Virus record (IMG/VR): IMGVR_UViG_3300009183_000050
Span: 1-64,000 of that record
DNA: 64,000 nucleotides
Direction: 5' to 3' (one strand)
DNA from: a virus
Part shown: one piece after another, positions 1,957-60,014 of the stretch
Layout: each line of letters starts with the position of its first letter
Numbering within the stretch: the first letter of the stretch is position 1
Program-made: the position numbers and the translations under genes
Notes under the pieces: generated by a model
Database searches by the model: none
What the model saw: only the letters and a program-made list of their open reading frames with translations
Told to the model about the DNA's origin: nothing

Positions 1957-2421
1957 ATGCAAATATTCTTAGACTGTGATGGTGTTCTAGCAGACTTCAA
2001 GAAAGGTGCTACCAAAGTTCTTGGTATGGATCCTACGAAGTATGAAGAAAAACATGGCAAGAAAGAGTTCTGGAAGCAAATCTATGCCGCACCAGATTTC
2101 TATTACAACCTCGAACCAATGTCTGATGCACACGACTTGGTGAACGCGGTTAAGCACCTGAAGCCAACCATTCTTACAGGTCGACCGGTTGGTGCATGGT
2201 CGACTCAGCAAAAGATGAACTGGGGTAAGAAGTATTTTCCTGACCTGCCAATGATTGTTTGTCTCGCCAAAGATAAGAATACATATGGTAAGGCTGGTGA
2301 TATACTGATCGATGATACTGTGAAGTATGAACACCTCTGGGCTCAGATGGGTGGTATCTGGATTACTCACACTTCAGCCAGAAACACAATAGCAAAATTA
2401 AAAAAGATGAAGGTGATTTGA
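1957..2421 (+). CDS. HAD-superfamily 5'(3')-deoxyribonucleotidase-like protein
   Basis: FLDCDGVLADF, LTGRP and ILIDD motifs. Confidence 0.85.
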   Translation: MQIFLDCDGVLADFKKGATKVLGMDPTKYEEKHGKKEFWKQIYAAPDFYYNLEPMSDAHDLVNAVKHLKPTILTGRPVGAWSTQQKMNWGKKYFPDLPMIVCLAKDKNTYGKAGDILIDDTVKYEHLWAQMGGIWITHTSARNTIAKLKKMKVI

Positions 2422-2672
2422 TGTATACGATCTACACTAAAGAAAACTGTGACTGGTGTATCAAAGTTAAAGCTTTGATGAAAAGCCTCAGCATCCCATA
2501 TAAAGAATTGAAGCTGGATGAGGACTATAACAAAGAAGAGTTACAGGCTCGTCTACCCTTAAGTCTACCCTTAACGGTACCTCAAGTTTTCAAGTTTGGT
2601 AGCCGCATTGGTGGTTATGAAGACCTAGCCGCATACTTTGAGATGCATGGCGTTATGGGCGCACAGCAATAA
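2418..2672 (+). CDS. nrdC: glutaredoxin
   Basis: CDWC, TVPQ, IGGYEDL. Confidence 0.9.
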   Translation: MMYTIYTKENCDWCIKVKALMKSLSIPYKELKLDEDYNKEELQARLPLSLPLTVPQVFKFGSRIGGYEDLAAYFEMHGVMGAQQ

Positions 2673-2687
2673 GTTTCTTATAGGTGG

Positions 2688-2716
2688 TTGCAGGTTACAC
2701 CTAGATGTTGTATACT
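2688..2716 (+). promoter_or_regulatory. sigma70-type promoter TTGCAG-N17-TATACT
   Basis: Intergenic, 17-nt spacing. Confidence 0.55.
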
Positions 2717-2748
2717 AACCTGTATTTTTATTATAAAGGTGATACACA

Positions 2749-3003
2749 ATGATGGATCGTTATAAACTGAAAGAAACCCTTGAGAGTGGTGTGGCTACTG
2801 TGACCTTCGAAAAGGTCGATGGTACTCTCCGCGAGATGCGTTGCACTCTTCAGTCTGATATGTTACCAAAGCAACTCTTGCGTGAAGAAGGTGATGCCTC
2901 TCAGCGCACAACTCCTGATACTGTTCTGGCTGTCTGGGACCTTGATCAAGGCGGTTGGCGGTCGTTCCGCGTTGACTCCGTTAAGAATGTGGTACTTGGA
3001 TGA
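2749..3003 (+). CDS. SH3 beta-barrel (WYL_2/DUF2693-like) phage protein
   Basis: VTFEKVDGTLREMRCTL ... WDLDQGGWRSFR signature. Confidence 0.8.
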   Translation: MMDRYKLKETLESGVATVTFEKVDGTLREMRCTLQSDMLPKQLLREEGDASQRTTPDTVLAVWDLDQGGWRSFRVDSVKNVVLG

Positions 3004-3287
3004 GTGCTGATAATGGAGTCTATGTTTTACAGACTTACGGTCCTGAGTTCCGAGTGGCCTATGCCCTCGGAATTGATAACATCTACGGAAAGTTTAATGA
3101 TGACACTCTACATTGGGATCCTAATGAAGAGATGATTCACGCCTTCTTCGATGAATCTGTTGTTTTTACGAATGTGGATATGGCACTTGACTTTGCTGAA
3201 GAACTCAGTTATAATTATGATTATCTTGAATACGGAATATGTTTGATTTCCGATTTCTCCGATTTGAAGTTCAACAAGGAAGAGTAA
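3000..3287 (+). CDS. hypothetical protein
   Basis: ORF with ATGA coupling. Confidence 0.65.
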   Translation: MSADNGVYVLQTYGPEFRVAYALGIDNIYGKFNDDTLHWDPNEEMIHAFFDESVVFTNVDMALDFAEELSYNYDYLEYGICLISDFSDLKFNKEE

Positions 3288-3288
3288 A

Positions 3289-4398
3289 GTGGCTAAAGCG
3301 GTTCAGAAGTCTCGTGGTAAGTTTCTTGATGAGAAATATCTTGGTTCAGAACCCGTTCTGATCGAAGGTTGCACACAGTTAGATTTGGCTAATGCCTATA
3401 ACTGGTATAACTATTTCTATAATTCCGAAGATGCCAAAGACTTCGCTCTTGCATATCTGAAGCAAATCAAATTCAATAAAGATAAGTTGAAGCGCCTTTC
3501 ACAGAATGAAAATTGGCACTTCAATTCTATTGGTTGGAGTTGCCGCATTCTTTCAAACAAAGGTCAGTTGCCTGACGGTGTTGAAACCGTCATGTTGCAA
3601 AAGGTTGATAAACTGTGTTCGAACAAGACTGAACAGGTTGATGATACACAAGTCGAACCGGTCAAGAACGTTGTATCGATTCAAGATCGTATTGCAAACA
3701 AAGCGGCCGACCTGATCGGCGATATCGAAGCTGAACTCGATAAGTTTCTGATCAACACCAAAGATACCTTCGAAGTTAAGAAGTGGTTCATTGCCAAGGG
3801 TATCAAACCACAAGTAGCCTCTAAGATTGCAGACTATTACAGGCCTCTATATGCTGAGGTGTTCGATGCTATGCAAGGTAAAGATGCACAACTGAAAGAA
3901 GCATATTCTCTCTGGAAAAAACCTGCTCTCAAGACATATCTCGAAACACTGAAAGAGATCATTGCACAGGCTGATTTCCAAGCTGAGATTGCCAAGGCTA
4001 CACGCAAGCCTCGTAAGAAGAAAGAAGTGCCTGCTTCGAAGGCTGTCGAGAAGTTACAATATCTCACTGCATTTGCCGAGATGGCTCTCACCAGCATCAA
4101 ACCTGTCGAGATCATTAAGAGTGAACAGCTATGGGTCTATAATGTGAAAACAAAAACGGTCACCGTCTATAATGCGATGGGGCCTGCTGGTCTAGGTGTT
4201 AAGGGGTCAACACTGATTGGTTTTGATGAAAAGACCTCTATTAGCAAACGTCTGCGTAAACCTTCGACACAGGTCAAACAGTTGATTGATGCTGGTAAGG
4301 TCAATCTCCGTAAATATATGGATTCTCTCACAACCACACCTAAACAAGCGACCGGCCGCATAAATAAGGATACGGTACTTGTAAGGGTGATTAAATGA
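3289..4398 (+). CDS. conserved T4-like myophage hypothetical protein (usually upstream of rnh)
   Basis: 369-aa ORF, C-terminal LGVKGSTLIGFD...GRINKDTVL; synteny. Confidence 0.75.
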   Translation: MAKAVQKSRGKFLDEKYLGSEPVLIEGCTQLDLANAYNWYNYFYNSEDAKDFALAYLKQIKFNKDKLKRLSQNENWHFNSIGWSCRILSNKGQLPDGVETVMLQKVDKLCSNKTEQVDDTQVEPVKNVVSIQDRIANKAADLIGDIEAELDKFLINTKDTFEVKKWFIAKGIKPQVASKIADYYRPLYAEVFDAMQGKDAQLKEAYSLWKKPALKTYLETLKEIIAQADFQAEIAKATRKPRKKKEVPASKAVEKLQYLTAFAEMALTSIKPVEIIKSEQLWVYNVKTKTVTVYNAMGPAGLGVKGSTLIGFDEKTSISKRLRKPSTQVKQLIDAGKVNLRKYMDSLTTTPKQATGRINKDTVLVRVIK

Positions 4399-8857: not shown

Positions 8858-9162
8858 GTCAAGAAGATGATGACGTTGACGTATTAGAATACCTTGAGGA
8901 TGCATACTCGTTCTTGCAGGATCCTGCTATTGGTAAGGCTATCGACGAGATCAAGAAACTTCGCAAGGTTCGCAATGATCAGGCTAACATCCTTCGTCGC
9001 CTGACACCAGACAAGTTCCCTGATACATACTTCGTTCATTCAGGTCTAGGTGAGAAAGATAAGAATGGCATGCCTGAAAAATTGCTGGTATGCCCTGCAT
9101 ATGGAGTTGACTTCTCATACATATATGAGTATACTGGTAAAACAACTACAACGGAGTGGTGA
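8854..9162 (+). CDS. hypothetical protein
   Basis: ATGA overlap with previous gene. Confidence 0.6.
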   Translation: MSQEDDDVDVLEYLEDAYSFLQDPAIGKAIDEIKKLRKVRNDQANILRRLTPDKFPDTYFVHSGLGEKDKNGMPEKLLVCPAYGVDFSYIYEYTGKTTTTEW

Positions 9163-9163
9163 T

Positions 9164-9868
9164 ATGCTGAATAATCCATGGATAGCTACAGAAACCAGCC
9201 CTTATCAATACTATGATGCGGGGCTTAGAAAATATCTATTATCTGTATTCAATTATATGACGATGGCACTAAGTATTAGTGGTATTGTCGCCTATGCGGT
9301 TGGAGTCAGCCCAGAACTGATGCAGGCCATATGGGGAAGCCCCCTCAAGTGGCTGGTGATGCTGGCACCTATCGGTATGGCACTCGCCATAGGGTTTCTT
9401 ATCAATGATATGAAAACTCACACAGCTAAACTATGCCTAGCTATATTTGCAGGCCTGATGGGACTAAGCCTTAGTAGCATCTTTGCCGTGTTCACCATGG
9501 CATCTATCTCTCAGGTATTTTTTATCAGTGCAGCCACATTTGGAACCACTGCAATATGGGGGTATACCACTAAACGTGACCTTAGTAATTTTGGTTCGTT
9601 TCTAATGATGGGATTGATCGGTATCGTGATTGCTGGATTGGTCAACATCTTTCTACAAAGTAGTGTATTGCAGATGGTATGTAGTGCATTAGGTGTAGTG
9701 ATCTTCGTTGGATTTACAGCTTATGATATGCAACAAATCAAACAAGCATATTATGAAACAGTCGGCGAAGAAAGAGAGAAGTCCGGAGTGATAGGTGCAT
9801 TGAATCTATATCTTGACTTTGTTAATATCTTTACAAGCCTATTGAATCTCATCGGAGACAGGAAATGA
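9164..9868 (+). CDS. yccA: Bax inhibitor-1/YccA family membrane protein
   Basis: About 7 TM segments; YDAGLRKY, GYTTKRDLS, TAYDMQQIK, GALNLYLDFVNIF. Confidence 0.9.
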   Translation: MLNNPWIATETSPYQYYDAGLRKYLLSVFNYMTMALSISGIVAYAVGVSPELMQAIWGSPLKWLVMLAPIGMALAIGFLINDMKTHTAKLCLAIFAGLMGLSLSSIFAVFTMASISQVFFISAATFGTTAIWGYTTKRDLSNFGSFLMMGLIGIVIAGLVNIFLQSSVLQMVCSALGVVIFVGFTAYDMQQIKQAYYETVGEEREKSGVIGALNLYLDFVNIFTSLLNLIGDRK

Positions 9869-10431
9869 ATATCTTCTATCTTGATAATGACCCTCAGAAA
9901 TGTGCTGAATATATGGTCGATAAGCATGTGGTCAAGATGATCCTTGAGACTGCACAGCTTCTATCGACCGCTCACCGTGTCCTAGACGGAGTAGAGTCGG
10001 TTGAACAGAGGTGGGTTGACGGCTCATTGCCTGCTCGATACCGCAAGGTGAGGCGTTGGAAACTTTCGGATGAGCGTGAAGATGTTCTCTATCAAGCTAC
10101 TCATATGAACCACCCCTCCGCTGTCTGGTGCCGAGAGAACCACCAGAACTACACATGGTTGTTCAACCATTTCCTGTCACTTATCTCTGAGTATGGTTTT
10201 CGCTACGGTAAAGATCACAAGTGCATCGATATGGTCAATGAACTCTTTAATCCACCTAAGAACATTTCAAAGAAAGCCTTCACGCCTGTCACACCAGCCA
10301 TGGCAGCCGAGTATCTTGTATCGAAAGATTCGATTGAGAACTATCGAAACTATTATAAGCTAGGCAAAACTCACCTACATAAGTGGACGAAGAGAAATCC
10401 GCCTGATTGGTTGAACACTCAGGTTGCATAA
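9865..10431 (+). CDS. pyrimidine-dimer DNA glycosylase/endonuclease V-like protein
   Basis: MNIFYLD..DKHVVKMILETAQLL, THMNHPSAVW, YRNYY. Confidence 0.8.
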   Translation: MNIFYLDNDPQKCAEYMVDKHVVKMILETAQLLSTAHRVLDGVESVEQRWVDGSLPARYRKVRRWKLSDEREDVLYQATHMNHPSAVWCRENHQNYTWLFNHFLSLISEYGFRYGKDHKCIDMVNELFNPPKNISKKAFTPVTPAMAAEYLVSKDSIENYRNYYKLGKTHLHKWTKRNPPDWLNTQVA

Positions 10432-10707: not shown

Positions 10708-10750
10708 TTGAGTAAGATCAATTCAAAATATAGAAATCGAAATACCAAAA

Positions 10751-10785
10751 GAAGGTGCACCGAAAGGTCGCCTTCTTTTGCTTTT
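10751..10785 (+). terminator. hairpin plus U-tract upstream of phoH
   Basis: GAAGGTGCACC-GAAA-GGTCGCCTTC followed by TTTTGCTTTT. Confidence 0.55.
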
Positions 10786-10797
10786 AAAGGAGCAACC

Positions 10798-11514
10798 ATG
10801 TCCAAGAAGCCTAAAAAGCCAATCAACACAAACACACAGCAACAGCACCGTCCAGTGAATCATTTTGAATTGAGAAGCATCAAACCTCTCACAGTTAACC
10901 AAGAGAACACCTTTGATGCATATCACGATGGTTACAATCTAATGTTACATGGTTATGCAGGCACAGGCAAAACATTCTGCGCTCTATATCTCGCATTGAA
11001 AGATATTCTATCCGGCCGTTCTGATGCGGAGAGAATCATCCTAATTCGTTCTGTGGTTCCATCTAGAGATATGGGTTTTCTTCCAGGTTCTATCAAAGAT
11101 AAGATCAAAGTCTATGAAGAACCATATAAAGAAATTTGTGATGATCTATTTGGTCGCGGAGATGGCTATGACATATTGAAGATGAAGAAACTGGTTGAGT
11201 TTACAACCACATCATTCCTTAGAGGTTTGACATTCAACAATGCCATTGTTATCGTGGATGAAACCAATAACATGCTCATGTCAGAACTGGATACAGTCAT
11301 GACCCGAATGGGCAATAACTCTCGTATCATCTTCTGTGGTGACTATCGTCAGACAGACCTGAACAAGCCTCATGAAAAAGAAGGCATCACACAGTTTATG
11401 AAGATTACCCATAAAATAAATAGTTTCAGACACATTGAGTTCCAGAAAGAGGATATCGTCCGCTCTGGAGTTGTCAAGGACTATATCATCCAGAAAACGG
11501 AAATGGGACTATGA
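10798..11514 (+). CDS. phoH: PhoH-like ATPase
   Basis: GYAGTGKT, MGFLPG, FLRGLTF, IVDE, CGDYRQTDL, DIVRSG; AAGGAG SD before ATG 10798. Confidence 0.95.
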   Translation: MSKKPKKPINTNTQQQHRPVNHFELRSIKPLTVNQENTFDAYHDGYNLMLHGYAGTGKTFCALYLALKDILSGRSDAERIILIRSVVPSRDMGFLPGSIKDKIKVYEEPYKEICDDLFGRGDGYDILKMKKLVEFTTTSFLRGLTFNNAIVIVDETNNMLMSELDTVMTRMGNNSRIIFCGDYRQTDLNKPHEKEGITQFMKITHKINSFRHIEFQKEDIVRSGVVKDYIIQKTEMGL

Positions 11515-12074
11515 AAAAATTCAAAGAATATATCAAAGAACAGGCGGATGACCCTATGCTGGCCTTCCGCAAGAAGAAGAAAAAGGAACACCTAGAAGAA
11601 GGTAATCCTCTCTCCCGTATGACTAAGCTTGATGCTGAAGGCCGTCATTCTATCGTCATGTCCGCTGAAAGACATAACTTGACACCTGATGAAAATGGTG
11701 CTAGAATGGCTGAGTTGAAGAAGCAATGGAAAGACCGTGGTTACGGATTTCGCAAGACTGAAGGCAAGTGGGATGAAGGTGGCGGAGTAGGCAGAGAGAA
11801 CTCCATCCATGTTTTTGCTAAAGGCTCTAAGAAAGAAGATAGTGCTGAACTGCTAAAACATGCGAAAGAACTTTCGACACACCACAACCAAGATGCTTTC
11901 ATTCATCGTTCACCGACCGGTAAAGGCACTGCGGTCTACACAGGCACAGAGAAGAAGGGTGAGAAGGTTAGCTACGGTAACACTGCTTATAATGCAAGAA
12001 ACCCATATGGTGAAACGCAATATAAGAAGAACAAGCCAGAAGCTAAGAGACCATCCTTTACGTTTAAGGAGTGA
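11511..12074 (+). CDS. probable internal head protein (capsid-targeting N-terminus)
   Basis: MKKFKEYIKE resembles the T4 internal-protein CTS MKTYQEFIAE; HLEE possible gp21 cleavage site. Confidence 0.6.
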   Translation: MKKFKEYIKEQADDPMLAFRKKKKKEHLEEGNPLSRMTKLDAEGRHSIVMSAERHNLTPDENGARMAELKKQWKDRGYGFRKTEGKWDEGGGVGRENSIHVFAKGSKKEDSAELLKHAKELSTHHNQDAFIHRSPTGKGTAVYTGTEKKGEKVSYGNTAYNARNPYGETQYKKNKPEAKRPSFTFKE

Positions 12075-12262
12075 TTATGAACATTGGTGATAAAGAATAT
12101 CGTGAGAAGCTAAAGCAATATTTTGAAGAGGTGGGTCCAAACACAGGCACTAACATGGCTGGTAAATGGGCTTGGCACATCACTCAAGAGAAAGCATTTC
12201 GTAAGACATTGAAAGAACGTAACATCGAGGTCGGCAAAGAGCATATAAAAAGCAACAACTAA
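12071..12262 (+). CDS. hypothetical protein
   Basis: AAGGAG SD; TAATG overlap with next gene. Confidence 0.65.
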   Translation: MIMNIGDKEYREKLKQYFEEVGPNTGTNMAGKWAWHITQEKAFRKTLKERNIEVGKEHIKSNN

Positions 12263-13017
12263 TGCAAAGATATAAAAGCGTATTCATATCTGATGTTCAC
12301 TTGGGCACCAGAGGTTCCAAGTCTGAACTTTTACTAGACTTCTTAAAAGATGTAGAATGCGAAAATCTCTTCTTAGTCGGCGATATCTTTGATGGTTGGC
12401 GACTAAAGAAAGGCTGGTATTGGCCTCAAGAACACTCAACTGTAATACAAAAGATCCTTCGTATGTCTCGCAAAGGTACGAAGGTCTTTTATATTCCTGG
12501 AAATCATGATGAGTTTATGAGACAGTTTCTAGAGCATTCATTTGGTGCTGTTGAACTGCATGATGAGATGATCTATGAAAGTGTTCTAGGTAAAAAGTAT
12601 ATCATCATTCATGGCGATAAGTTTGACTTCGTTACTATGAATATGTCTTGGCTCTCTCATATCGGTGATTGGGCTTATACTGGCTTACTAAACATAAACA
12701 CACTGGTACATAAGATACGTTCATACTTTAGACTACCTTATTGGTCATTATCAAAGTGGGCAAAGCAACGAGTTAAAGAAGCTGTCAACTTTATAGGTAA
12801 CTATGAACATTCTCTCACGCATTACGCTAGAATTAAACACGTTGATGGTATTATCTGCGGGCATATTCATTCGGCTAATATGGATATTATAAATGGTATA
12901 GAATATATGAATTGTGGTGATTGGGTTGAATCATGCACCGCATTGGTTGAACACTGTAATGGTCGATTTGAAATCATTCATTGGAGACAAAATGTCGAAA
13001 ATCCTGATTGTATCTGA
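12262..13017 (+). CDS. plcP: PlcP-like Mn-dependent phospholipase C (LpxH2-like metallophosphoesterase)
   Basis: FISDVHLGTRG, LVGDIFDGW..WYWPQEH, PGNHDE, HGDKFD, ICGHIH, YMNCGDWVESCTALVE. Confidence 0.8.
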   Translation: MQRYKSVFISDVHLGTRGSKSELLLDFLKDVECENLFLVGDIFDGWRLKKGWYWPQEHSTVIQKILRMSRKGTKVFYIPGNHDEFMRQFLEHSFGAVELHDEMIYESVLGKKYIIIHGDKFDFVTMNMSWLSHIGDWAYTGLLNINTLVHKIRSYFRLPYWSLSKWAKQRVKEAVNFIGNYEHSLTHYARIKHVDGIICGHIHSANMDIINGIEYMNCGDWVESCTALVEHCNGRFEIIHWRQNVENPDCI

Positions 13018-13987
13018 TACATGGTCACCACATATCAACGGTGTGGTGACCACTCTCAAGAAGATAGAAGAGTATGCAAAGGGTGAGGTTGAATTTGTTA
13101 CACCACACTCATTCAAAACACACGCAAACCCATTCTATCCAGAACTCCGACTCGCCTTTCCCAATCAAAAAGAGATTCAAACAGTCGTCGATTCTATTCA
13201 ACCTGAGTTTATTCACATTGCAACCGAAGGTCCTATCGGTTATGCAATGCGTAAGTGGTGTGTGAGAAAAAAAGTTAAGTTTACTACTAGCTATCACACA
13301 AAGTTTCCTGAATACTTCAAAGCATACTTTAACATACCCACATGTATCACCTATCCATATTTCAAATGGTTTCATAATGCAGGTAAAGGTATATTTGTTG
13401 CAACCGAGTCGCTACGTCTTGACCTTGAGAAGAAAGGTTTCAAGAACTGCATGGCTTGGGCAAGAGGTGTTGATACGGAATTGTTTTGGGATTATGATAA
13501 CCAACCAAAAGCAGATCCTAAATTTGCGTTGTTTGTTGGTCGAGTATCTAAAGAGAAGAACATCGAGGCGTTTCTCAATCTCAAGTATAATGGTGTGAAG
13601 GTCGTTGTTGGTGATGGACCGCAACTCAAAGAACTCAAGAAAAAGTATCCTGATGTTCAATTCAAAGGTTCGATGACGGGTGAGTTTCTTGCATGGTATT
13701 ACCAGAATGCTGAAGTGTTTGTTTTCCCTAGCAAGTCAGATACCTTTGGTTTGGTTATGCTAGAAGCACTGGCCTGTGGAACACCTGTAGCCGCATATAA
13801 CGTAACGGGACCAAAAGATGTGATCATTCCATCTGTTGGCTGTGTTGATGATGACTTGCAAAAAGCACTTGACACAGCCGTCCATTGTGATAGAATGGTC
13901 TGTAGAAATTATGCGGAACGATTCAGTTGGAAGAAAGTGGTTGATATCTTTATCAAGAAAGTGAAATATGAAAACGTTCCGTCATAA
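12992..13987 (+). CDS. GT4 glycosyltransferase, Agt-like (diacylglycerol glycosyltransferase)
   Basis: KILIVSDTWSPHINGVVTTL, IHIATEGPIG, TTSYHTKFPEY, VGRVSKEKNIEAFL, FPSKSDTFGLVMLEALACGTPV; GGAG SD at 12983. Confidence 0.85.
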   Translation: MSKILIVSDTWSPHINGVVTTLKKIEEYAKGEVEFVTPHSFKTHANPFYPELRLAFPNQKEIQTVVDSIQPEFIHIATEGPIGYAMRKWCVRKKVKFTTSYHTKFPEYFKAYFNIPTCITYPYFKWFHNAGKGIFVATESLRLDLEKKGFKNCMAWARGVDTELFWDYDNQPKADPKFALFVGRVSKEKNIEAFLNLKYNGVKVVVGDGPQLKELKKKYPDVQFKGSMTGEFLAWYYQNAEVFVFPSKSDTFGLVMLEALACGTPVAAYNVTGPKDVIIPSVGCVDDDLQKALDTAVHCDRMVCRNYAERFSWKKVVDIFIKKVKYENVPS

Positions 13988-14654
13988 GACAAACTTGGTC
14001 AAACTAGAACCGCTGCCAGACGAGATCATTGATGGTAAGCGGTTCTACACTGCACCAAGCGGTAACAAGCTACCCTCCGTCACCACCGTGCTAGGTCACT
14101 TCAAGAAGCAAAAACTTGTCGAGTGGCAGGACAAGGTCGGCTTAGAAGAAGCTGAACGTATCAAGACTCGTGCAAGCCTTCGTGGTACCAAATTTCATAA
14201 CATGATGGAAAAGTATCTGCTAAACGAAAGCAAGCGTATCATCTTTGAAGATGTTATGCCTGATATGAAACAGGCCTTCAATGATGCTAGACCATATATT
14301 GACAAGATCGACGAGATACATTATATTGAATCTCCATTGTATTCGGAGGCTCTCGGATTGGCTGGTCGAACCGATGTGATTGCCGAGTATGATGGTGTGC
14401 CTTCAATCATCGACTTCAAGACCTCGTTGAGGATTAAGAAAGAATCGTGGATCGAAAACTACTTTGAACAGGGAACAGCCTACTCACTAATGTATGAAGA
14501 ACTAACTGGTATCAAGATCGAACAGATTGTGATTATCATATCGGTTGATCATGAGGATAAACCTCAAGAGTTTATCAAGAACCGAAATGACTATGTTGAC
14601 TCACTGATGGATAAAATCGAAGCCTATAAAAAGGAACATTCTAATGTATATTGA
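13968..14654 (+). CDS. PD-(D/E)XK (Cas4-like) exonuclease
   Basis: LPSVTTVL, RGTKFH, AGRTD..IIDFKTS, Q..AY. Confidence 0.9.
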   Translation: MKTFRHKTNLVKLEPLPDEIIDGKRFYTAPSGNKLPSVTTVLGHFKKQKLVEWQDKVGLEEAERIKTRASLRGTKFHNMMEKYLLNESKRIIFEDVMPDMKQAFNDARPYIDKIDEIHYIESPLYSEALGLAGRTDVIAEYDGVPSIIDFKTSLRIKKESWIENYFEQGTAYSLMYEELTGIKIEQIVIIISVDHEDKPQEFIKNRNDYVDSLMDKIEAYKKEHSNVY

Positions 14655-14842: not shown

Positions 14843-15022
14843 ATGAATATGACTTGGAAATTGTTCAGTGGTTTTGTAATCGGGTTTCTGTTTCTTCCAC
14901 TGATAGTGATGCTTGACAAATATGTAGGACCTGGAGCAGGATCCATCGCTATTGCTATGCTTGGAATGGGTATCTGCGTAGCGGCCTGTGTTTGGTTGAT
15001 TGAAAAGATGAGTAAACTCTGA
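14843..15022 (+). CDS. 59-aa two-TM membrane protein (not in ORF track)
   Basis: MNMTWKLFSGFVIGFLFLPLIVMLDKYVGPGAGSIAIAMLGMGICVAACVWLIEKMSKL; fills the gap before the tmRNA promoter. Confidence 0.55.
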   Translation: MNMTWKLFSGFVIGFLFLPLIVMLDKYVGPGAGSIAIAMLGMGICVAACVWLIEKMSKL

Positions 15023-15024
15023 GG

Positions 15025-15055
15025 TTGCCAACAGAGGCCACTTGTGATATAAATA
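15025..15055 (+). promoter_or_regulatory. composite promoter for ssrA: TTGCCA-N17-TATAAA overlapping late TATAAATA
   Basis: Both motifs visible directly upstream of the tmRNA. Confidence 0.7.
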
Positions 15056-15060
15056 TAGAT

Positions 15061-15360
15061 GCTAAGGTTGTTGATAATGACATAATATACGGAAGAGACC
15101 TCGGGGCAGTACCGAGCGGGTCCACCATAGATACATAGAAGGTTGTTGACCTTTTAAGGCAGTTAGCTAATGCCACCTGAGTAGAAGTCTCGGCTATGTA
15201 TCTTTGATGGGCCCGAAATAGAATCGATCTACGAGTAAAAGTCAGAGTAGACCAAGGCAAAACATAAATGCAGCAAACGATAACTTTGCATTTGAGACAC
15301 GCCTAGCGGCTTAATCTCATTGGGTATGGGTTCCACCTCGAAACAGAACGGGCCCACTTT
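15061..15360 (+). ncRNA. ssrA: circularly permuted (two-piece) tmRNA
   Basis: T-arm plus CGGGTCC-A-CCA ending 15127 precedes GGGCCCG at 15209 (7-bp acceptor stem with G3:U); tag ORF 15270-15314 AANDNFAFETRLAA*. Confidence 0.93.
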
Positions 15361-15362
15361 AT

Positions 15363-15433
15363 GTCGCTGTCGGTGTTGATGGGAAACACAGATCGATAAG
15401 ACTAGGACTTCCGTTCGAATCGGAACAGCGGCG
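15363..15433 (+). ncRNA. tRNA-like element (no proper anticodon arm, no CCA)
   Basis: GTCGCTG/CAGCGGC acceptor, GTGT/ACAC D-stem with GG loop, TTCCG-TTCGAAT-CGGAA T-arm. Confidence 0.55.
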
Positions 15434-15461
15434 CTTTGACACACAAACACAGGAGACTATC

Positions 15462-58337: not shown

Positions 58338-60014
58338 ATGAGATTTCATGTCTTGGGGTTACCTCACACGGTAACAAATAAAGAATATTCTGCATGTGCC
58401 TATACTCAGAAGATTGTCAAGTTTGGTAAGATGATGAAAGCCCGTGGGCATACAATCATCCACTACGGTCATGAAGATAGTGTGTTAGATTGTGATGAGC
58501 ATGTTACAGTTCTTACGAACAATGACCTAGAAATCTCATATGGTAATCATGATTGGAGAAAGAACTTCTTCAAGTTTGCCATGGAAGATCATGCGTATCA
58601 GACGTTCTTTAAGAATGCAATCGTAGAAGTTGGCACCAGAAAACAACCAAATGATTTTATCTTGCCATTCTGGGGTCAAGGTGTAAGACCTGTTACTGAT
58701 GCTCATCTCGATCTTATCTGTGTAGAACCTGGAATTGGTTATGCAGATGGTCATTGGGCAAGATTTAGAATCTATGAGTCATATACCATGCACGCCGCTG
58801 TTAACGGTCTTGACAAAGTTAGATCATGCACACAAGACTGGTATCACTCAGTAATACCGAACTACTTTGATCTAGATGACTTCGAGTATAGCGAACAGAA
58901 GGATGATTACTTCCTGTATCTTGGCCGAGTCTATGAAGGCAAGGGTGTTCATGTCGCAGTCGAGATGACCAAGAAACTAGGCAAAAAATTGATCATTGCA
59001 GGTCAAGGTAGTCTTGCTGATATGGGTTATACAGAACCACCTGAGCATGTAACTGAAGTTGGTTATGCAGATTTTGAACTTCGCAAGAAGCTAATGTCAA
59101 GAGCGCAAGCACTGTTTATCGGTAGCACATATGGCGAACCATTTGGTGGTGTTCAGATCGAAGCAATGCTCTCTGGAACACCTGTCATTTCTACTGATTG
59201 GGGTGCATTCTCTGAGTTCAATGTCAACGGTTATACAGGCTATCGTTGCAGAACATTTGATGATTTCTTAGAGGCTGGTCGTAACATTCACCTGATCTCA
59301 CCTAAGAATTGTAGAACATGGGGTGAAAACTTTTCACTTGAAAAAGTTGGTTCTATGTATGAGAAATACTTTCAAGATGTTCTGAATGTCTATACAGGTA
59401 ATGGTTGGTATGAAGAAGGTAACGGCAATATAGATTGGCTGACCAAGAAGTTGCCAAACCATGAAGTTACCGATAAGTTTGATTATGAACTTATTGAACG
59501 AGAAGAGAAACCTTTCTTCAATAGACTAGCTTCTTGGGTAGCCGGAGAAATCAGACCTACTCAGGCGATAGATTTAGGTTGTGGACCTGGAATGTTTGTT
59601 CACTCTCTTAGAGATAATGATATCAGCGCATATGGTATTGATACAGATAATATTGTTTCAGGTAGATTGCACTTACAGCAAAAAAGTTTGTTTGAGAGAA
59701 ACCTTGGTCGATATGATCTCGTCTCATGTATCGAGGTTGCTGAACATATTGAAACTGATATGAATAATCAGATAGTAGATGCGGTCTATGACTATATCGA
59801 AAACCAAGGTAAACTGATTTGGTCGGCTGCAAGACCAGGTCAAGGCGGTGTCAATCATATCAACTGCCAGACAAAAGAATATTGGTCTGACAAGTTTATC
59901 GAGCGTGGCCTAACCAGAAACTATGAACTTGAGCAAGAACTAGAAAGTTACCTTAAAGAAGGTGTCTATATGGGATGGTTCATGAACAACTTTATGATTT
60001 TTGATAGGCAATAA
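58338..60014 (+). CDS. GT4 glycosyltransferase fused to a class I SAM methyltransferase
   Basis: LGRVYEGKG, EPFGGVQIEAMLSGTPV; IDLGCGPG, CIEVAEHI, GQGGVNHIN. Confidence 0.9.
   Translation: MRFHVLGLPHTVTNKEYSACAYTQKIVKFGKMMKARGHTIIHYGHEDSVLDCDEHVTVLTNNDLEISYGNHDWRKNFFKFAMEDHAYQTFFKNAIVEVGTRKQPNDFILPFWGQGVRPVTDAHLDLICVEPGIGYADGHWARFRIYESYTMHAAVNGLDKVRSCTQDWYHSVIPNYFDLDDFEYSEQKDDYFLYLGRVYEGKGVHVAVEMTKKLGKKLIIAGQGSLADMGYTEPPEHVTEVGYADFELRKKLMSRAQALFIGSTYGEPFGGVQIEAMLSGTPVISTDWGAFSEFNVNGYTGYRCRTFDDFLEAGRNIHLISPKNCRTWGENFSLEKVGSMYEKYFQDVLNVYTGNGWYEEGNGNIDWLTKKLPNHEVTDKFDYELIEREEKPFFNRLASWVAGEIRPTQAIDLGCGPGMFVHSLRDNDISAYGIDTDNIVSGRLHLQQKSLFERNLGRYDLVSCIEVAEHIETDMNNQIVDAVYDYIENQGKLIWSAARPGQGGVNHINCQTKEYWSDKFIERGLTRNYELEQELESYLKEGVYMGWFMNNFMIFDRQ

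Follow-up and report, generated by a model that had tools for sequence, protein, structure and literature searches.

We report that a stretch of viral DNA of 64,000 nucleotides (nt), positions 1 to 64,000 of IMG/VR record IMGVR_UViG_3300009183_000050 and hereafter called the window, carries two overlapping genes that appear to be phage-borne copies of the PlcP-Agt pathway, by which bacteria renovate their lipids, a reading to which we assign a probability of about 0.72. The first gene (12262..13017, + strand) encodes a PlcP-type metallophosphoesterase of 251 amino acids, a putative phospholipase C, and the second (12992..13987, + strand) encodes a family GT4 glycosyltransferase of the Agt/GTcp type with 331 amino acids, a putative diacylglycerol glycosyltransferase. 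Both assignments were drawn from domains, motifs and phylogenetic trees, and for the phosphoesterase also from a structural model. In bacteria, PlcP and Agt spare phosphorus under starvation (PMC4796936; PMC9239053). Judged from its sequence, the phage pair very probably turns the phospholipid of an infected cell into glycolipid. In the mechanism that we propose, the pair would be expressed together with phoH from the early or middle co-directional part of a T4-like genome. The first enzyme would act as a phospholipase C on phosphatidylethanolamine, phosphatidylglycerol or phosphatidylcholine of the inner membrane, giving diacylglycerol and a phosphorylated head group, and the glycosyltransferase would move glucose or glucuronic acid from a uridine diphosphate (UDP)-sugar to the diacylglycerol, giving phosphorus-free monoglycosyl diacylglycerol or glucuronic acid diacylglycerol. 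The bilayer would stay intact while lipid phosphorus enters the cytoplasm. The likeliest benefit in lake water poor in phosphorus would be an additional supply of this element for making phage nucleotides and DNA and, unlike the host operon, the phage copy may run without a PhoB signal.

The phosphoesterase contains the motifs on which a preliminary description of this DNA had based its PlcP-type call (SDVHLGTRG, GDIFDGW, WYWPQ, GNHDE, CGHIH and GDWVESCTA), and it matches the Pfam family Metallophos with 47.5 bits. Its metal-binding residues D11, H13, D41, N81, H82, H117, H201 and H203 were invariant in an alignment of 14 phage and bacterial homologues. An AlphaFold2 model of the protein (mean predicted local distance difference test score, pLDDT, of 78) points to a metallophosphoesterase core with a helical insert at about residues 118-191, as in lipid-binding LpxH, and its 25 best matches in the PDB were LpxH-lipid X complexes at about 20% identity. 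This shared fold, the annotation of the homologues at source as 'UDP-2,3-diacylglucosamine pyrophosphatase LpxH' and the placement of the gene under lipopolysaccharide (LPS) biosynthesis in virus surveys would all suit a divergent LpxH that acts on UDP-2,3-diacylglucosamine beside a glycosyltransferase of LPS or polysaccharide synthesis, the two together altering lipid A or LPS. The profile scores argue against such an enzyme: the phosphoesterase reached 54.6 and 52.8 bits on the LpxH equivalog model NF003743, which has a cut-off of 134, and 49.4 bits on TIGR01854, which has a cut-off of 190. Across 61 Pseudomonadota genomes the LpxH-model scores were bimodal, with true LpxH at 213-361 bits and a second full-length set at 36-55 bits, and in five of these genomes one LpxH coexists with one paralogue of the second set. 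We also built a PlcP-type hidden Markov model from the phage protein and 13 homologues, on which the phage protein scored 464 bits, the fetched second-set loci 291-429 bits and true LpxH 24-49 bits.

The maximum-likelihood tree gave the same division, with 13 LpxH rows separated from 74 PlcP-type rows by a branch with 100% support in the Shimodaira-Hasegawa-like approximate likelihood ratio test (SH-aLRT). The window protein lay on the PlcP-type side and was grouped with three viral contigs; the same PlcP-type group held the sole Agrobacterium tumefaciens homologue and homologues from Methylocystis, Roseibium, Bradyrhizobium and Sphingopyxis, among others, and the viral clades fell outside the sampled cellular clade. 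Metzger and Raetz are said to have reported in 2010 that many Alphaproteobacteria use LpxI in place of LpxH. With the partner enzyme carrying the Asp-for-Glu dyad of the Agt clade and clustering with Agt far from other GT4s, as described below, we consider a lipid A or LPS function of the two genes extremely unlikely. By its sequence the phosphoesterase is a PlcP-type paralogue and not LpxH, in agreement with the preliminary description, and databases mislabel this PlcP-type enzyme as the lipid A enzyme LpxH.

The second gene lies in a reading frame of 12914-13987 and starts at the ATG at 12992 (MSKILIVSD...), which is preceded by GGAG. Its product has the domains Glyco_transf_4 (55.9 bits) and Glycos_transf_1 (78.4 bits); like the Metallophos match of the first enzyme, these scores stand far above chance level. 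The three motifs earlier listed for it, ILIVSDTWSPHINGVVTTL, HIATEGPIG and TTSYHTKFPEY, were all found. In each of two A. tumefaciens genomes a single gene aligns with it over the full length (46% identity; E 1e-88 and 1e-87), and the next-best GT4 matches there have E values of about 1e-6 to 1e-5. This Agt-type gene is situated about 604 kb from the plcP homologue, a spacing that would fit the atu1649-atu2297 distance in C58 numbering. Members of the Agt/GTcp clade have a His104-Asp256 dyad, with Asp for the usual GT4 Glu, and the motifs GRVAxEKN and FPSxTDTFG (Wei et al. 2021, PMC8231724); they share 46-58% identity within the clade and less than 25% with other GT4s, and the residues essential in GTcp are the His, the Arg/Lys of GRVAxEKN, the Asp of FPSxTDTFG, a Glu and a Trp (PMC8231724). 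In the phage protein the dyad consists of H102 in SYHTKFPEY and D250 in FPSKSDTFG, the UDP-sugar motifs are GRVSKEKN (183-190) and FPSKSDTFG (245-253), which depart from the consensus by two conservative substitutions (A to S and T to S), and the Gly-rich N-terminal motif INGVV occupies residues 15-19. The further key residues R158, E258 and W313 are present, and between the Arg/Lys motif and the Glu, the Asp included, the residue numbering runs at a constant offset of -6 from GTcp. Three of the four diacylglycerol contacts of GTcp (His104, Thr162, Arg163 and Trp320) are kept, as H102, R158 and W313. In the glycosyltransferase tree, the 20 viral proteins grouped together with a support of 82 within the Agt clade, and the other Agrobacterium GT4s sat on branches of 9-10 changes per site. 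These results indicate that the glycosyltransferase is a member of the Agt/GTcp clade, apart from other GT4s, and the earlier Agt-type call was borne out by the tree.

The two genes are coupled in an operon-like manner. They overlap by exactly 26 nt, the figure first given for them, and overlaps of 1 to 26 nt recur across the gene block, which fits translational coupling. A glycosyltransferase homologue was located directly 3' of the PlcP homologue in 63 of the 80 alphaproteobacterial loci retrieved with the phosphoesterase; in the Agrobacterium and Rhizobium loci no glycosyltransferase homologue comes next. Adjacency of plcP and agt is known in SAR11, Erythrobacter and Methylosinus (PMC4796936; PMC9239053). 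The phage proteins share 50-57% (PlcP) and 43-49% (glycosyltransferase) identity with their bacterial partners, and the experimentally verified orthologues of OB3b and HTCC7211 are 51% and 43% identical (PMC9239053). Against a related contig, the ratio of nonsynonymous to synonymous substitution rates (dN/dS) was 0.05 for plcP, 0.096 for the glycosyltransferase gene and 0.048 for phoH, values that place both genes of the pair under strong purifying selection.

It could be argued that the adjacency was inherited and the pathway is no longer used, the glycosyltransferase acting on something other than lipid, be it phage DNA, a polysaccharide or a virion protein, and the phosphoesterase on an unrelated substrate. 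T4-like phages encode glycosyltransferases for other acceptors, and a second glycosyltransferase gene is located in the window at 58338-60014; Thr162 of GTcp is Ala in the window protein, and about half of the viral plcP loci are without an Agt-type neighbour. We regard this explanation as very unlikely in view of the strong purifying selection on both genes, the retention of the essential GTcp residues, including three of the four diacylglycerol contacts, and the recurrence of a PlcP paired with a lipid-type glycosyltransferase of a different family in another phage lineage. In that lineage (viral locus L197), a gene for a GT2/GT21-like protein of 233 amino acids (2303-3004) overlaps the start of the PlcP-type gene (3001-3777) by 4 nt, and the locus adjoins a ribonucleotide reductase gene. 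Such pairing with a lipid-type glycosyltransferase of another family argues for functional coupling.

We also weighed whether the pair is host DNA fused to the phage contig by misassembly or binning, as the purely bacterial origin of the nearest named homologues might suggest. The composition of the genes argues against such a fusion, with a guanine-plus-cytosine (GC) content of 36.9% for plcP and 40.5% for the glycosyltransferase gene, whereas the phage genome has 41.3% and the bacterial homologues have 58-69%; GC at third codon positions likewise matches the phage rather than the bacterial homologues. In the trees, the viral PlcP and glycosyltransferase sequences form clades of their own. 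The pair is flanked by phage genes, upstream as well as downstream, whose starts and stops overlap, and three independent assemblies (ENA, JGI and Logan) have the same gene order, namely phoH, the SAM (S-adenosylmethionine)-lyase-like gene, a 63-codon open reading frame (ORF), an extra 73-codon ORF, plcP, the glycosyltransferase gene and a PD-(D/E)XK nuclease gene, followed by T4 gp59-like and late-transcription genes. Furthermore, Logan contigs from freshwater metagenomes of two studies span the junctions phoH/SAM-lyase, 63-codon ORF/plcP, plcP/glycosyltransferase and glycosyltransferase/PD-(D/E)XK. The habitat was taken from runs labelled 'freshwater metagenome' or 'metagenome', and run shares below 0.2 were not used for naming it. 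The composition, the separate clades, the dN/dS values, the three assemblies and the bridged junctions together argue that the genes are phage copies and not recent host DNA; the continuity of the assembly, raised as a concern in the preliminary description, was thereby confirmed, and a misassembled or misbinned host fragment has a next to negligible probability.

Two side observations concern variation within the pair. One contig of run X2 joins position 12308 to 13210 and skips 901 nt, comprising most of plcP and the start of the glycosyltransferase gene; the joint has just 23 letters on one side, which is below the trust limit of the tool, so it may be a deletion variant or an artefact and we leave it uninterpreted. 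In addition, the window PlcP is 80-82% identical to those of loci L004-L007, the adjacent glycosyltransferases sharing only 44-55%, and the corresponding values for the related contig L160 are 96% and 86%. Either the glycosyltransferase evolves faster or it was exchanged.

The window constitutes the first 64 kb of a virus record of 140,865 bp with a CheckV completeness of 85%, and its gene content identifies the source virus as a T4-like myovirus. PHROG matches in the window included the baseplate wedge subunit gp6 (547 bits), other baseplate and virion structural proteins, tail fibres and a tape-measure-like protein. T4-type late promoters (TATAAATA) were enriched in the window (10 versus 4.7 expected), all on the + strand; all except one (15048) fell within the structural region, and none was near the block of phoH, plcP and the glycosyltransferase gene. 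The lack of a TATAAATA late promoter near the block is a hint, and a hint only, that it is not transcribed late. A transfer-messenger RNA (tmRNA) was detected by Rfam at 15021-15358 (+), with 91.9 bits (E 1e-24) for alpha_tmRNA and 79.5 bits for tmRNA_permuted. It is permuted, two-piece and of alphaproteobacterial type, and it lies about 370 nt 3' of the PD-(D/E)XK gene; an ARAGORN scan of the window had returned no tRNA and no tmRNA, thus missing this one. In relatives in run X2, the stretches 15127-15203 and 15358-15446 of the tmRNA area are replaced or skipped. Because the tmRNA is of the alpha type, the sequence suggests an alphaproteobacterial host, which agrees with the alphaproteobacterial affinity of the plcP-glycosyltransferase pair.

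The pair recurs widely among viruses. At the nucleotide level, the 3.2-kb block had no megablast match among 50,697 phage records, and relatives were found at the protein level only. A close-relative scan of IMG/VR retrieved 39 loci, about 30 of which have an Agt-type glycosyltransferase gene directly downstream; in three of them (L027, L031 and L035) phoH stands directly upstream of the pair, so that the phoH linkage also exists in a second phage clade. A profile-based scan of IMG/VR extended the survey that had been proposed for the pair, revealing at least 536 viral stretches that encode PlcP-type proteins, and among the 73 best of these loci with room downstream, 35 have an Agt-type glycosyltransferase gene there. 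T4-type gp6 or baseplate genes share a contig with plcP in four relatives, which measure 82-162 kb and include one that is 98% complete, and other carriers resemble pieces of much larger phages (59-116 kb at 16-32% completeness). SegE-type GIY-YIG homing endonuclease genes were seen directly 3' of plcP in L165 (3725-4144) and L197 (3891-4400), the former having nothing but the SegE gene downstream of plcP; the locus may be shuffled between phages by way of such genes. Two cultured phages are also carriers: Pelagibacter phage Mosig EXVC030M encodes a protein with 48% identity (QOI69083.1, 'putative UDP-2,3-diacylglucosamine hydrolase'), the gene for which stands back to back with a phosphate ABC-transporter (pstS-like) gene, and Synechococcus phage S-SRM01 encodes one with 36% identity (QPX48289.1). 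Neither gene is adjoined by an Agt-type glycosyltransferase gene.

From about 7.8 to 18.5 kb of the window, all genes point in one direction and are closely packed. The block begins with phoH (10798..11514, +), which encodes a PhoH-like ATPase (Pfam PF02562, 152.6 bits), has an AAAGGAG ribosome-binding site before its ATG and overlaps the start of the next gene with its stop codon. That next gene (11511..12074, +) is SAM-lyase-like (Pfam PF23780, 32.1 bits, cut-off 28); it is kept between phoH and plcP in the related contigs L160 and L161, lies outside the lipid chemistry and may have an anti-restriction or methionine-cycle function. The 63-codon ORF that follows (12071..12262, +), taken from the ORF list, ends with a stop codon that overlaps the start codon of plcP (TAATG). 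It has no Pfam match, and L160-L162 have a gene for 63 amino acids in the corresponding position. The distance from the end of phoH to the start of the phosphoesterase gene is 747 nt, close to the 750 nt first estimated, and no terminator-like site on the + strand was found in this stretch, again as first described. Downstream, the PD-(D/E)XK (Cas4-like) nuclease gene (13968..14654, +; Pfam PF12705, 24.3 bits) overlaps the end of the glycosyltransferase gene by 20 nt and has homologues 3' of the pair in L027, L031 and L160; it is a conserved downstream neighbour outside the lipid chemistry.

Upstream of the block, a hairpin with a T-run (10748..10791, +), terminator-like or a structure of the 5' untranslated region (5'-UTR), folds at -22 kcal/mol (z -4.2). 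None of 200 shuffles was equally stable, and a compensatory stem change occurs in L160. The hairpin ends so close to the phoH start, about 20 nt 5' of it, that a promoter would not fit between them, and it may be a terminator with read-through or a 5'-UTR structure. Further 5', the window contains a gene for a BI-1/YccA-like membrane protein (9050-9868, +; Pfam Bax1-I, 189 bits), 2.4 kb from plcP. Its homologues (54-61% identity) are located 1.2-1.9 kb 3' of plcP in L187, L197, L198, L199 and L206, and it may be a recurrent membrane-related neighbour of plcP. The intervening gene (9865-10431, +) encodes a protein of 188 amino acids with a match to Pyr_excise, a pyrimidine dimer DNA glycosylase family (DenV-like, 26.8 bits), with an apparent domain insertion, residues 1-121 of the protein covering a profile of 81 positions.

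We then considered what the phage would gain from lipid renovation. A supply of phosphorus is the simplest reading, since a T4-like phage of about 140-165 kb needs many genome copies in phosphorus-poor water, and the linkages to phoH and to a pstS-like gene point toward this role. We judge it somewhat better than an even bet that phosphorus supply is the main selective benefit. The same chemistry might instead have been selected for an envelope change, in which glycolipids in place of phospholipids could alter the composition of the outer or inner membrane and so serve superinfection exclusion by a block of adsorption or DNA entry of competing phages, membrane stability or lysis timing. Lipid composition alters phage attachment in roseobacters (PMC9938194), and lipid change in Pseudomonas is expected to affect phage receptors (PMC9804370); the BI-1/YccA-like gene 2.4 kb upstream, with homologues near plcP in five other viral contigs, and the failure to find a Pho box, pstS or a phosphatase with the pair in this genome would also suit an envelope role. 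Against it stand the linkage of the pair to phoH here and in the second phage clade, the back-to-back arrangement of the Mosig plcP homologue with a pstS-like gene, and the phosphorus-sparing nature of the pathway in every bacterium studied (PMC4796936; PMC9239053). An envelope change as the selected function is therefore unlikely in our estimate, and it is mutually compatible with phosphorus supply.

Several points weigh against the renovation pathway as we read it. Enzyme activities, substrates, expression timing and the phosphorus benefit are all inferred. The helical insert of the phosphoesterase was modelled at low confidence (pLDDT 47-67). The trees were built without the reference proteins SMc00171, MED193_17359, PB7211_983, Atu2297 and PB7211_960, with PA3219 likewise absent from the PlcP tree, and orthology was anchored via the A. 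tumefaciens genes and the Methylocystis and Roseibium relatives. The diacylglycerol contact Thr162 of GTcp corresponds to Ala157 in the window glycosyltransferase, a position taken by Ser in Agrobacterium and by Thr in the relative L005. No Pho-box-like repeat was found upstream of phoH or plcP in a scan for two CTGTCAT-like repeats with 11-bp spacing, an enterobacterial/rhizobial consensus that was the sole one tried. No pstS turned up when the 140.9-kb record (85% complete) was searched for that family, and no phosphatase for releasing phosphate from the freed head groups was identified in the phage. The link to phosphate stress consequently rests on the phoH linkage and the biology of the bacterial pathway, and expression may follow the infection programme rather than host PhoB.

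Over the whole window, the Pho-box scan gave 10 weak matches compared with 6.75 in shuffles, none of them intergenic. The weak match at 11642 was rejected, as it is inside the SAM-lyase-like gene and ill placed relative to a promoter-like site at 11679-11707. A sigma-70 promoter scan was uninformative, with 15 sites versus 18.4 expected. A lake metatranscriptome contig of 240 nt (run X20) matches the window at 100% over 12115-12354, across the junction of the 63-codon ORF and plcP; it may be a transcript, DNA carry-over is possible, and we did not count it as evidence.

The bacterial members of the pathway include PlcP of Sinorhizobium meliloti (SMc00171), Phaeobacter MED193 and SAR11 HTCC7211, Agt of A. 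tumefaciens (atu2297) and GTcp of HTCC7211, with further plcP-agt genes in Methylosinus trichosporium OB3b and Pseudomonas aeruginosa. The phage pair resembles them in its two protein families, the order of plcP then agt, the tight coupling, the catalytic motifs and a comparable level of identity. It differs in being carried by a lytic-type T4-like phage, with phage-like GC and phage-specific clades, in having no Pho box that we could find, in its position behind phoH and a SAM-lyase-like gene and in the Thr162 to Ala exchange; unlike many bacterial copies, the phage PlcP is without the variable C-terminal tail. The pair is also comparable to the phosphate genes of phages (pstS, phoA and phoH in T4-like cyanophages and pelagiphages), being host-derived and located in a variable region in phages of nutrient-poor waters. 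In contrast to those genes, which raise the uptake of external phosphate, it would free the phosphorus of membrane lipids and rebuild the membrane. The Mosig and S-SRM01 proteins place the PlcP type in cultured T4-like phages, where they are annotated as lipid A enzymes.

The preliminary description knew of no such phage system, and in a search of the open-access literature we found no description of a phage-borne PlcP or PlcP-Agt pair. That statement holds for the pair and has to be narrowed for the first gene, which is deposited in Pelagibacter phage Mosig and appears in two virus surveys that include 'lpxH' among viral LPS genes without further comment. The enzymes and their operon are known bacterial biology and phage phosphate genes are known as well; it is their combination in a phage-borne pair that was not found in the open-access literature searched. 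The LPS gene 'lpxH' of the virus surveys is probably misfiled.

Phage genes for phosphate uptake, such as pstS and phoA, are textbook cases of viruses reshaping host metabolism in nutrient-poor waters. If our reading is correct, the pair would represent a different route, in which phosphorus is drawn from the membrane lipids of the host while a second enzyme preserves the membrane. Viruses may then control the making of part of the phosphorus-free glycolipid seen in lakes and oceans. Lipid remodelling changes the susceptibility of bacteria to antibiotics and phages, and both superinfection and cell-surface properties could therefore change if a phage sets it off. The idea is testable now because the cultured phage Mosig has the first enzyme and because bacterial assays and mutants exist. 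More broadly, we tentatively suggest, at slightly less than even odds, that virus-driven lipid renovation is a widespread unrecognised strategy. Phages of fresh and marine waters in their hundreds (T4-like, jumbo and other types) would then switch on, during infection and independently of PhoB, the lipid programme with which the host answers phosphorus starvation. Glycolipid-rich cells and lysates would be left behind, part of the glycolipid signal and of the 'lpxH' reads in aquatic surveys would be viral, and membrane phospholipid would serve as a phosphorus reserve for virion DNA.

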